Origin: a virus
Lineage: Duplodnaviria; Heunggongvirae; Uroviricota; Caudoviricetes
Reading direction: 5' to 3' (one strand)
IMG/VR virus record: IMGVR_UViG_2534682078_000033
DNA: 8,767 nucleotides
Within the stretch, counting starts at the first letter, position 1; each line of letters starts with the position of its first letter. The position numbers are program-made. This document shows positions 6,001 through 8,767 of this stretch, in pieces.

Positions 6001-8767
6001 CTATCGCCCTTCTCCGCGACGATATGAAAAAGCTGGGGTATGAGATGAAGCACTTCCGGCGCTGGCTGTACAAGCTGGAAAATGATGGCGTAATCGTTAT
6101 TGACGGTGATGACGTGCGCCCGCTGTAAAAAGTGGGGAGTAAAAGTGGGGGGAGTGGGGAATTTAACAAAATTGAAACATAATTACCCACTTTCCCACCT
6201 GTATATACCCAAAAAAGTGGGGAGTAAAAAACATATTGAAAAACATAACGTTAGAATCACAAAAAAAAGAGGTGGGGAGACGGTGGGTAATTTCAAAAAG
6301 TGGGGAGCAAAAGTGGGGAGTAGTGGGGAATGAACAGAAAAACCAGAGATAAGACAGCGCCAAAATATAAAGCGTTAGACATGACAGAGCTTTCCTTAAA
6401 GGTGGCAATCAGAACGATAGACCGCCACGCGGGGGAAGGATACGCGAAGGAGCATCCCGAACTGATAAGCGCATTCATGACCACAGCGGCGGCAAACTTT
6501 GCCACGCTGACAGAACGGGAGATTGCCGAAGCGGAACAGGTAACAACCATCAACGTTAAAAGCGCTGGAGAATAACCGAAGAAGTGAGCACATAGCCGGA
6601 GCAATCCGGCTTTTTTTCGATCTCATATATCTTCAAAGATGGTTAATTAATGATAATCTATCGAAAATACTGGTTATGCAATGATAAGTATCAGGAGAAA
6701 ACAAAGTGGAAGAGATAAAGCAAAGCGCTACCGTGATGATTGATCATGAAATCCTTAACGAGCTTAAAAAGTTGCAGTTCGATATTGTGCGCCGGATGAA
6801 TGAATCAGGTATCTACGGCAGGGCGGCAACACCAACAATAGGGCATCTTGCGCGCGTACTGTTACGCGAACGCCTGGGCATTGCAACAAGTGAGGCGTAA
6901 ACAATGGCTATCACAGAACGCGAGGCAAGCATCATTAAAGCCATTGGCGAGGAAACAAGAGACACCATAGCGCCATTGATGGAAAAGATCGCAGAGCTTG
7001 AGACACGAATAAACAAGCTGAGTGATGAAGTTGAAGGCCTGATCTCGTTACTCGGTGAGCAATGACAGGGGGGGAGTGTTCCGGCCGGAAAGTCGATCGC
7101 CCTGGACACCGCCCCCCGTCTCATTCATAGAAAATTTTGCTTTTCAAAAAAGTTACACGAAAAGTTACACCCCCTCAAAACGAGGTTTTTGCATGGCATT
7201 AACGACCAAAAAAAAGCGGTTTGCTGATGCGTTATCAAAGGGCACAAATCCAACGGAAGCCGCGATACATGCGGGATACAGCGAAAAGACTGCAAGGGTT
7301 AAAGGCTGGCAGCTATCCAATGATCCGGAGGTGAAAAAGTATCTTAAGGCTGTAACTTCTGATGTAACTTTTCAGGTTACAAAACCGAAAAAAGTTACAA
7401 AGAAAGTTACCGAAAAAGTTACACCGGAACGGGCATCAATTAACACCATTGAGATGATGGATAACGGCCTACCCGACCCCATCAAAGCAATGGGCAGGAT
7501 ACTGATTGACAACATGGACACAGATCAAAAACTGGCTTTAGATGCCGCGTTTAAGCTGGCCCAGTTCACCCACCGCAAGATCGGCAGCATTGGGAAAAAA
7601 GAGGTTAAAAAACTCAATGCCGCTAATGTCTCCTCAAATCGGTTCCCCATCCCTAAGCCACCAACTGGCTTAAAACACTGAGGTAGCGAACTATGAGCGA
7701 ATACATCACAGACCCTATTGATGTACTCACGGAAATCATGAACGACAAGCAGCAGCCAACCGAAATACGGTTACAGGCTGCCGCTGTTCTGATGCCATAT
7801 TTTCACGAAACCCTAACCCCATGTTACCAGGAGGAAGAAGATGATGATTTCTAAAAACATGAAAGGCGTGTCGGCAGTTCGCGCCGCCAGCGTGCTTACA
7901 TCGTGTAAATTCAGCCATGCAGACGCAATTGAAATGACGAAAAAAAATGATCCGGCAGTATCGAAATTTCTTGAAAAATCCATTGTTGCCGGAATGACTA
8001 CGGATAATATGCCGTCGCTGGTGGCAGAGCCGATAGTAAGAGAGCTTGGCGAGTATATTTTTTCGCAGTCTGTACCAGGCAAGCTAATCAGCAGCGCGCT
8101 GAATCTTCCGTTTGGCGCAAAATTGCAGTCAATATCAGGCAAGGGTAGTAAATGGCTTAAAGAAGCCGAAGAAATCCCTGTCAAAGAGGGAGAAGTAAAC
8201 GAAAGTGCGCTAAAACTGTGCAAACTTGGCGCTATTGTGATGCTGAATAACGAGCTAATCAAATTTAGCACCCCTTGTACCAATTCAGCGATCAGAGACT
8301 TGATCACATCGGAATCGGTGAAAGAAATAGATAAAAAATTTCTTTCCAGTGACCAGGAGGTGGCGGGCGTATCCCCTGAGGGCGTGCTTAATGGTGCTGA
8401 TGAGGCCGAAAACTTCATAGAGCTTTTCAAAAAGCACATAGCGAACGGTAACACGCTTGCCACGTCGTCGCTAATCTTGCCCGTAGAAAACGCCTTACAG
8501 CTTACTGATGCTGAGTTCTGGCAGATAGAGCTTTTGAGAATACCGGTAATTGTGAGCGAACAGGCGGATCGCATGATGCTGATAGACGCTCAAAAGCTGA
8601 TTATTAACGTTGAAGCCACAGTTATAACCCCAACTGATGAGGCGGTAATAAAAACCGAATCAGGGACGGTTAGCCTTTTCCAGAATGACGCTACAGCGTT
8701 CAGGGCAATCACCTATTGCGGATGGCAAAAACTCGATAAGGCCGTCACCGTTCTGGCGAAAAGCTGA

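Follow-up and report, generated by a model that had tools for sequence, protein, structure and literature searches.

Phased repeats upstream of and inside terS as a probable cosB-like packaging site of a PICI-type satellite of enterohaemorrhagic E. coli

The window, i.e., the whole stretch of 8,767 nucleotides taken from the virus record IMGVR_UViG_2534682078_000033, represents nearly all of a satellite of the phage-inducible chromosomal island (PICI) type from enterohaemorrhagic E. coli (EHEC). It carries terS, the small terminase gene, and copies of the short motif AAAGTTACA are found both upstream of this gene and inside it. These repeats, and the cohesive-end (cos) sequence beside them, are the subject of this report. 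The region contains the following features, given in window positions.

7066-7148, plus strand: conserved cos block, G-run ... CGATCGC ... GGACAC-CGCCCCCCGT-CTCAT..AGAAAATTTT..TTTCA, shared with HNH-type cos phages
7110-7119, plus strand: predicted cosN CGCCCCCCGT, a 9/10 match to the published cohesive end CGCCCCCCCT
7149-7157 and 7161-7169, plus strand: proximal pair AAAGTTACA-CGA-AAAGTTACA, non-coding
7193-7681, plus strand: terS, small terminase of 162 amino acids (Pfam PF03592 Terminase_2, E=1.7e-11; PHROG 641, E=4.8e-43)
7351-7359 (8/9) and 7363-7371 (9/9), minus strand: distal inverted pair TGTAACTTC-TGA-TGTAACTTT, in terS codons 53-60
7373-7381, plus strand: degenerate direct copy CAGGTTACA, encoding Gln-Val-Thr
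7391-7399, 7403-7411 (8/9) and 7415-7423, plus strand: distal direct array AAAGTTACA / AAAGTTACC / AAAGTTACA, in codons 67-77, encoding KVTKKVTEKVT

In total there are five direct copies, two inverted copies, and one degenerate copy, and these repeats are real and non-random. Of the nine occurrences of the heptamer AAGTTAC in the window, seven fall in 7150-7422. The number expected by chance in the whole window is 0.80 on average and 4 at most, and none of 200 dinucleotide-preserving shuffles reached nine. When up to one mismatch to the 9-mer AAAGTTACA is allowed, 7 of the 10 matches in the window fall in the terS-region stretch. The initial annotation had described two copies upstream of terS and three direct copies plus inverted copies inside it, a 12-bp periodicity, and a linker in TerS that is translated from the intragenic copies. 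All of this holds, with the coordinates moved by 1-2 nt. The spacing is exactly 12 bp inside each of the three groups, and the product sequence contains the stretch encoded by the repeats (...KAVTSDVTFQVTKPKKVTKKVTEKVTPE... / ...AVTSDVTFQVTKPKKVTKKVTEKVT...). Note that the three groups do not share a single 12-bp register; the second and third groups start 202 and 242 bp from 7149. The motif encodes Val-Thr in both orientations, as GTA-ACT when inverted and as GTT-ACA when direct. The degenerate copy has a counterpart, ccgGTTACA, in the related loci L005 and L095.

The proximal pair begins 30 nt past the predicted nick and ends 24 nt ahead of the terS ATG (7193). The block at 7066-7148 that precedes it is 72% identical (63 matches in 87 alignment columns) to the spacer between the HNH gene and terS in the Shiga toxin (Stx) 2a phage 1447 (L002 4716-4801). 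In the same comparison no homology is found 5' of the block, and the part of terS that encodes the helix-turn-helix (HTH) domain is only 62% identical between the island and Stx phages. The cos block is found in all relatives with enough upstream sequence. Lys8385Vzw, one of the related phages, is reported to be a cos phage with 3' cohesive ends CGCCCCCCCT, on the basis of PhageTerm applied to virion reads (PMC7946995). The GenBank record of this phage opens right after the cohesive-end sequence, at the homologous CTCACGCAG, and the record of the Acinetobacter phage fEg-Aba01 opens at the same homologous position. Because the cosN-like CGCCCCCCGT matches the published end and the two phage records start there, the left end of packaged island DNA is predicted to be 7120. 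terS is the first gene after this predicted end, as it is in the Lys8385Vzw record. RM8385, the source strain of Lys8385Vzw, also carries the island, at 100% identity (H72). By homology to the phage cos region, the repeats adjoin the predicted nick on the side that would be packaged first, and they consist of several short copies of which some are inverted; both are features of a cosB.

The island TerS shares 46% identity with that of many Stx1-/Stx2-converting and other lambdoid prophages, in whose head modules the genes are ordered HNH, terS, terL, a protease-capsid fusion, and portal. In the Stx phages the island's AAAAAGTTACACGAAAAGTTACA is replaced by GGGCAGTTAACATGTTAAC at the homologous place, and the position of the proximal pair is homologous to that of the first GTTAAC pair of these phages. 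The two motifs are arranged as follows, relative to the terS start codon.

-42, -30, +158 (minus strand), +170 (minus strand), +200, and +224: island-type AGTTACA, in 12 loci
about -196, -188, -120, -97, and -82: Stx-type GTTAAC, in about 60 distinct loci, nearly always five copies

The six island-type positions are shared by all 10 viral contigs examined and by the E. coli chromosomal loci L001 and L003. Among the approximately 60 distinct Stx-type loci, one has four GTTAAC copies and none has GTTAAC inside terS. Other homologues of the island TerS with their DNA come from further E. coli islands (one with HNH, terS, and a capsid gene), a Salmonella island, a Hafnia prophage, and metagenome contigs. 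Every homologue examined has one or two aaaaGTTACac copies 28-47 nt ahead of the start codon, and where there is enough upstream sequence, the first copy lies about 30 nt past the cos block. The Salmonella, Hafnia (a complete prophage with terL and portal), and metagenome lineages share the motif with the island. In the E. coli island that has HNH, terS, and a capsid gene (L005 5790-6000), the upstream array is expanded over 200 bp, from the cos block to terS, and contains six copies of the GTTAC core, one inverted copy, and one GTTAAC.

More distant relatives use other motifs in the same arrangement. fEg-Aba01, whose TerS is 30% identical, has three copies of AAGTTAAA just past its left end, and its linker codons contain another three (+/-/+). 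A scan of the genome collection with the TerS alignment yielded a single locus, an Arsenophonus prophage with a 42%-identical TerS, in which AATGTTGA(C) is present once in the proximal position and as an inverted pair where the linker is encoded; this 8.3-kb locus has no further copy, and the three fall within 200 bp. Four motif classes, AAAGTTACA, GTTAAC, AAGTTAAA, and AATGTTGAC, are therefore found in the same position, each with its own TerS clade, and in all four the sequence that leads from the nick to the first repeat (C.CA...A.A(A)AAAA(A)TT...) is recognisable. From one TerS lineage to the next the repeat differs, but cosN and its flanks change little. In lambda-like phages, cosN and cosB are likewise defined by a nick region that is conserved and a repeat after it that is specific to the lineage. 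The island repeats accompany terS, and they do not follow the integrase, the regulator, or the replicase: the O157 variant of the island differs in all three of these genes and has the same repeats. A Hafnia phage with terL and portal carries the repeats too.

The N-terminus of the island TerS matches the DNA-binding domain of the SF6 small terminase G1P. Profile matches in the Protein Data Bank are to Pam5 TerS (E=8e-4) and, more weakly, to SF6 (3zqp, E=7e-3; 2cmp, E=5e-2). In the AlphaFold2 model, helices are found at residues 5-56, with a predicted local distance difference test score (pLDDT) of 81-89, and at residues 96-126 and 135-147. The protein thus has the N-terminal HTH domain and the helical core, in this order, of Terminase_2/G1P-like proteins. 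Residues 57-82, between the HTH domain and the core helices, form the sole long segment of low confidence (pLDDT <50). The residues encoded by the repeats (54-77) map to this linker, which is predicted to be disordered and which, going by the model, would be the part of TerS best able to tolerate an imposed sequence. TerS is taken as the reader of the repeats because it is the only protein of the shared module with a recognised DNA-binding domain, the island having neither HNH nor terL, and it would accordingly be expected to bind them. On TerS rings, neighbouring HTH motifs are about one turn of B-DNA apart (PMC4737164). By analogy, the 12-bp spacing of the repeats is compatible with such one-turn spacing.

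Codon usage in the linker was compared in an alignment of seven lineages, whose TerS proteins are 52-85% identical to one another and 56-65% identical to that of the window. Outside the linker, identical residues use the same codon in only 34-63% of cases. In the linker, Val-Thr is encoded by GTA-ACT (proximal group) or GTT-AC[A/C] (distal group) throughout, with the exception of one GTA-ACA just beyond the array in L005/L095. At the position of the inverted pair, five of the six other lineages have GTA-ACT for Val-Thr, and L005/L095 have dropped the dipeptide there. In the distal array, all seven lineages encode Val by GTT without exception and Thr by ACA or ACC. Among conserved codon columns that are at least fourfold degenerate, 3/5 are invariant in the linker vs. 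0/25 in the rest of the gene (Fisher p=0.0025). The Val codons GTG or GTC make up 0/26 in the linker vs. 10/28 in the rest of the gene. Because the Val-Thr codons of the linker are kept while other synonymous sites are scrambled, the suggestion in the initial annotation that constraint at the DNA level shapes the TerS linker is well supported.

Near-identical islands differ by deletions of exactly 12 bp and 24 bp, i.e., whole units, in the direct array, and the linker, which is predicted to be disordered, tolerates changes in length. Both points would fit if the intragenic copies were a by-product of slippage in a low-complexity linker (an expansion of KKVT) with no function in cis, so that at most the two upstream copies matter. 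Slippage accounts for the number of copies but not for the same codons being kept in lineages with scrambled synonymous sites. It also leaves unexplained why the change from GTA-ACT in inverted copies to GTT-ACA in direct ones is conserved, why the flanking bases match those of the non-coding copies, and why other motifs have the same intragenic placement in the Acinetobacter and Arsenophonus relatives. This origin of the intragenic copies is considered unlikely.

It is less likely still that the repeats are operator or activator sites for the packaging operon, possibly for autoregulation by TerS. The proximal pair, at 24-44 nt ahead of the terS start, is suitably placed, and the pac region of SPP1 overlaps promoters too (PMC4737164). 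However, no sigma-70-like promoter is found in 6600-7900, and the first copy stays at a fixed distance from the cos nick in phages and islands, even when terS is inside a long late operon. The repeats also do not travel with the island regulator, and the intragenic copies are hard to explain in this way.

A headful packaging (pac) site as in SPP1 or in Staphylococcus aureus pathogenicity islands (SaPIs), at which TerS binds the repeats and TerL cuts imprecisely nearby, has in its favour that the repeats span the start of terS, as in SPP1, and that pac-type SaPIs likewise use a TerS of their own. Headful packaging is marked by an imprecise first cut and by mature DNA that is terminally redundant and permuted and has no cohesive ends, and the related phages, by which this point is judged, speak indirectly against it. 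Their modules have HNH-terS-terL with a protease-capsid fusion, in the style of HK97, and Lys8385Vzw has published, defined 3' cohesive ends. The island keeps the 10-nt end of this phage at 9/10 positions and has conserved flanks. A headful site is therefore very improbable. That the inverted and direct copies act as RNA, by a hairpin in the terS mRNA or a duplex between the 5' untranslated and coding regions that tunes translation, is the least credible alternative: the arms 7148-7172 and 7348-7372 are 84% complementary and the minimum-free-energy fold pairs 7351-7371 with 7391-7411, but the fold is no better than that of shuffled sequences (z=-1.19; 10/100 shuffles fold at least as well), Stx phages hold the equivalent repeats wholly outside the gene, and no Rfam family matches the window.

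The reading that is left as the probable one, on sequence grounds, is that the repeats make up the half of the island's cos site that is cosB-like and determines specificity, and that the island's own TerS reads them. The initial annotation had taken them for a packaging recognition site built like a pac site or a cosB. This stands in its cosB-like form, beside a cosN at 7110-7119 that had not been noticed, and does not stand as a headful pac site. It had also been proposed that the repeats set the packaging specificity of the island. This is retained in so far as the motif differs from that of co-resident Stx phages, but the motif is not unique to the island. Because the Hafnia phage and other islands with a related TerS carry it, the specificity would be that of the TerS clade.

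Several points weigh against a cosB-like site read by TerS. The isolated DNA-binding domain of SF6 has little specificity for the SPP1/SF6 pac repeats (PMC4737164). The island TerS (EKTARVKGWQL) and that of Stx phages (AKTARVKGSQL) hardly differ in the presumed recognition helix, and the island and Stx motifs differ by one base (GTTAC vs. GTTAAC). Discrimination may be weak, or it may reside outside the recognition helix. The number of direct intragenic copies is 1, 2, or 3 among near-identical islands. Because natural variants carry one to three copies, the copy number is flexible and not all copies are essential; by analogy with rR2 of phage N15, the distal array could be accessory. The 13 differences between O111 and O157 islands in 7100-7700 all miss the repeats, but this is not significant alone. 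No comparable repeats are found in the Burkholderia phage vB_PR2a, whose TerS is 38% identical. A scan of viral contigs for the tandem motif gave at least 120 loci, mostly unrelated and far from terS, and only 16 of these have a TerS-like open reading frame (ORF) anywhere in the locus. Because the tandem motif recurs in unrelated contigs, for example between replication genes, the motif alone is not diagnostic.

If the repeats are a cosB-like site, packaging of the island may proceed as follows. After induction and replication, the island TerS would assemble as a ring, and its N-terminal HTH domains would bind the copies of AAAGTTACA. On the right of the nick site CGCCCCCCGT (7110-7119), one or two proximal copies would follow at a distance of 30 nt. 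The distal cluster, two inverted and then three to four direct copies, would come about 200 bp later within terS, where the codons specify the flexible linker that joins the DNA-binding domain to the oligomerisation core. We infer that looping or wrapping allows both clusters, proximal and distal, to be bound jointly and that the 12-bp spacing matches adjacent HTH domains on the ring. Bound TerS would recruit TerL and the HNH nuclease of a helper phage, both of which are absent from the island, and these would cut the shared cosN and package rightward from 7120. The helpers are presumably HNH-type cos phages, including the Stx1-/Stx2-converting prophages of EHEC. Because Stx phages have a near-identical cosN, GTTAAC repeats, and a 46%-identical TerS, the pair of repeat and TerS would give the island a packaging identity of its own. 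Since the likely helpers include Stx-converting prophages, the island might hinder the spread of toxin phages or be carried along in it.

A broader proposition is put forward tentatively, as a possibility that falls somewhat short of even chances. In the Terminase_2 TerS lineage of HNH-dependent cos phages and their satellites, half of the recognition site may lie inside the codons of a disordered linker, forming a portable cassette of reader and site that satellites exploit. If so, reader and site would be hard to separate by recombination, and satellites would keep a cosN compatible with the TerL and HNH of Stx phages and yet have a private cosB. This would be a third route to satellite-specific cos packaging, beside the copying of the helper cos (SaPIbov5) and the re-programming of TerS (Rpp). 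The kind of site is known from the cosB of lambda and N15, the pac of SPP1, and the TerS of satellites; here it is found with an uncharacterised TerS lineage, and what is notable is that its distal half is written into the linker codons of terS. In the literature searched, no description of the island's cis packaging site was found, and a full-text search with AAAGTTACA gave nothing relevant. The region 7066-7430 offers a concrete candidate cis site for a common class of Gram-negative PICIs with their own TerS. The four natural pairs of motif and TerS in one layout form a specificity-swap series, which bears on how ring-shaped HTH small terminases read sequence. A cassette of about 370 bp (cos and the 5' half of terS) could be a minimal packaging signal for phage-based delivery.

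The island that carries this site is 9,291 bp long between 26-nt direct attachment (att) repeats and is present in 222 of 5,426 complete E. coli genomes; among the matches listed, the hosts are mainly O111, O26, O103, and O157 strains. In the O111 strain 11128, the order is int, an alpA-type regulator, small genes, a RepA-type helicase gene, three small ORFs, and then the packaging end, which consists of terS, a 53-aa ORF, and a capsid-like gene (307-308 aa) and is followed by the host gene yejO. No terL, portal, protease, tail, lysis, or HNH gene is found in the gene content of the island. The PICI type as catalogued by SatelliteFinder has int, a regulator, a primase/replicase, a capsid-morphogenesis gene, and terS, is without terL, portal, tail, and lysis genes, and reaches 9.5 kb in the median. 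Because its gene content and size fit this definition, the island is assigned to the PICI type, which is an already catalogued type. Assignment to the capsid-forming PICIs (cf-PICIs), which encode terL, portal, protease, and head-tail connectors, was rejected: terL, portal, and protease are missing, and yejO follows the capsid-like gene.

The capsid-like protein (7841-8767) is 23% identical to residues 291-633 of the protease-capsid fusion of Stx phages (E=2e-20). It is without the protease part and resembles Ccm of SaPIbov5, a capsid homologue by which capsid size is redirected. At 9.3 kb, the island unit has about 1/5.5 the length of the 51-kb phage genome. Between terS and the capsid-like gene, a 53-aa ORF at 7693-7854 matches positions 89-126 of the PHROG 641 profile, which are the oligomerisation-helix part of the TerS family. 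In the phage-like contig L093 (533-682), a 59%-identical ORF sits between terS and terL. Because of this homologue, the ORF is considered to belong to the packaging module and not to be specific to the island, and the idea that it is an island-specific decoy for TerS is weakened. Another 53-aa ORF (6904-7065), with a sequence suggestive of a coiled coil, has a stop codon that lies directly against the G-run of the cos block. The Salmonella island and a metagenome island (L010, L092) have similar ORFs at this point, where phages have the HNH gene.

Other repeats exist in the island. At least five iterons AAAAGTGGGGAG are found at 6126-6320, overlapping the last codon of repA and extending into the following spacer, with one 18-mer present three times at spacings of 85 and 83 bp. 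This set is probably the replication origin of the island. The repeats of the terS region were also considered as origin iterons; this was rejected, as they are kept in the O157 variant with a different primase and in phages. In L131 (360-590), one of a group of low-GC viral contigs, at least nine copies of AAAGTTACA/TGTAACTTT lie between genes, just upstream of a small ORF and an SNF2-type helicase gene. Paired motif matches like these are found in L115, L140, L171, and others, and in L131, L115, L140, and L171 a Terminase_2-like TerS is encoded about 4.3-4.8 kb downstream. The L131-type array is possibly an origin.

Two 75-nt direct repeats (2091-2165 and 2769-2843) are 83% identical, and each has a GCGCCGT...ACGGCGC hairpin. 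They overlap the 3' ends of two small genes on the minus strand, one of which is of the YlcI/YnfO family, and no match to them is found in Rfam. The 20-nt unit AAAAACGGTGAATACCGTTT is present twice in tandem at 1465-1504. Each unit is partly palindromic, and the pair, about 65 nt upstream of the alpA-like gene (1571-1777), looks like an operator. The att repeat, which lies outside the window (L001 4845-4908 and 14136-14161), is 26 nt in length and consists of two copies of TTTAGTTATACG phased at 12 bp, to which the left end adds two inverted copies. The att core AGTTATACG is one base off the cos motif AGTTACACG (8/9). This likeness was judged to be coincidental, since the integrase and the insertion site of the O157 variant are different ones while its terS repeats are unchanged.

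Among known systems, the cosB of N15 has the same overall geometry as the island repeats (7149-7169 vs. 7351-7371). In N15 the TerS site R3 adjoins cosN, and the inverted rR2, proposed to be accessory, is about 200 bp distal in the small-terminase gene (PMC4669245). The protein systems differ: N15 is a lambda-like cos phage with a Nu1-type winged-helix TerS and an unrelated terminase system, whereas the island has a Terminase_2 (SF6-like) TerS, predicted 3' ends, and HNH-type helpers. Unlike in N15, each cluster of the island is an array phased at 12 bp, and the distal array dictates the repeated Val-Thr of the linker. The cosB of lambda (R3-I1-R2-R1) similarly has several short R sites beside cosN, one of them inverted. 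The sequence of the R sites sets the packaging specificity, and cosN is largely shared between the groups (lambda, 21, N15). A site for integration host factor bends the DNA between R3 and R2. However, all R sites described in lambda are within the 120-bp cosB and none is in the terS gene, and the protein families are unrelated to those of the island.

The pac site and G1P of SPP1/SF6 are related through the protein, since the N-terminal DNA-binding domain of G1P is homologous to that of the island TerS, and in SPP1 direct repeats extend from upstream of terS into the beginning of the gene (PMC4737164). SPP1 packages by the headful, and its isolated domain did not bind the repeat boxes specifically (PMC4737164), whereas the island site adjoins a predicted cos nick. 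EcCICFT073 (Rpp) and the cf-PICIs are, like the island, Gram-negative PICIs with int/alpA/rep modules, cos packaging, and a cosB that is unlike that of the helper. EcCICFT073 has no TerS and re-programs the phage TerS through Rpp. The cf-PICIs encode HNH, TerL, portal, and capsid in addition to TerS, while the packaging module of the island is limited to TerS, the 53-aa protein, and the capsid-like protein. In pac SaPIs, as proposed for the island, the satellite's own TerS redirects the helper TerL to satellite DNA, but packaging there is by the headful. The cos SaPI SaPIbov5 is, similarly, a satellite of HNH-type cos phages with a cos site and the diverged HK97-fold capsid homologue Ccm. The cos SaPIs copy the whole cos of the helper and have no functional TerS. 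Unlike either kind of SaPI, the island appears to pair a TerS and repeats of its own with a shared cosN.

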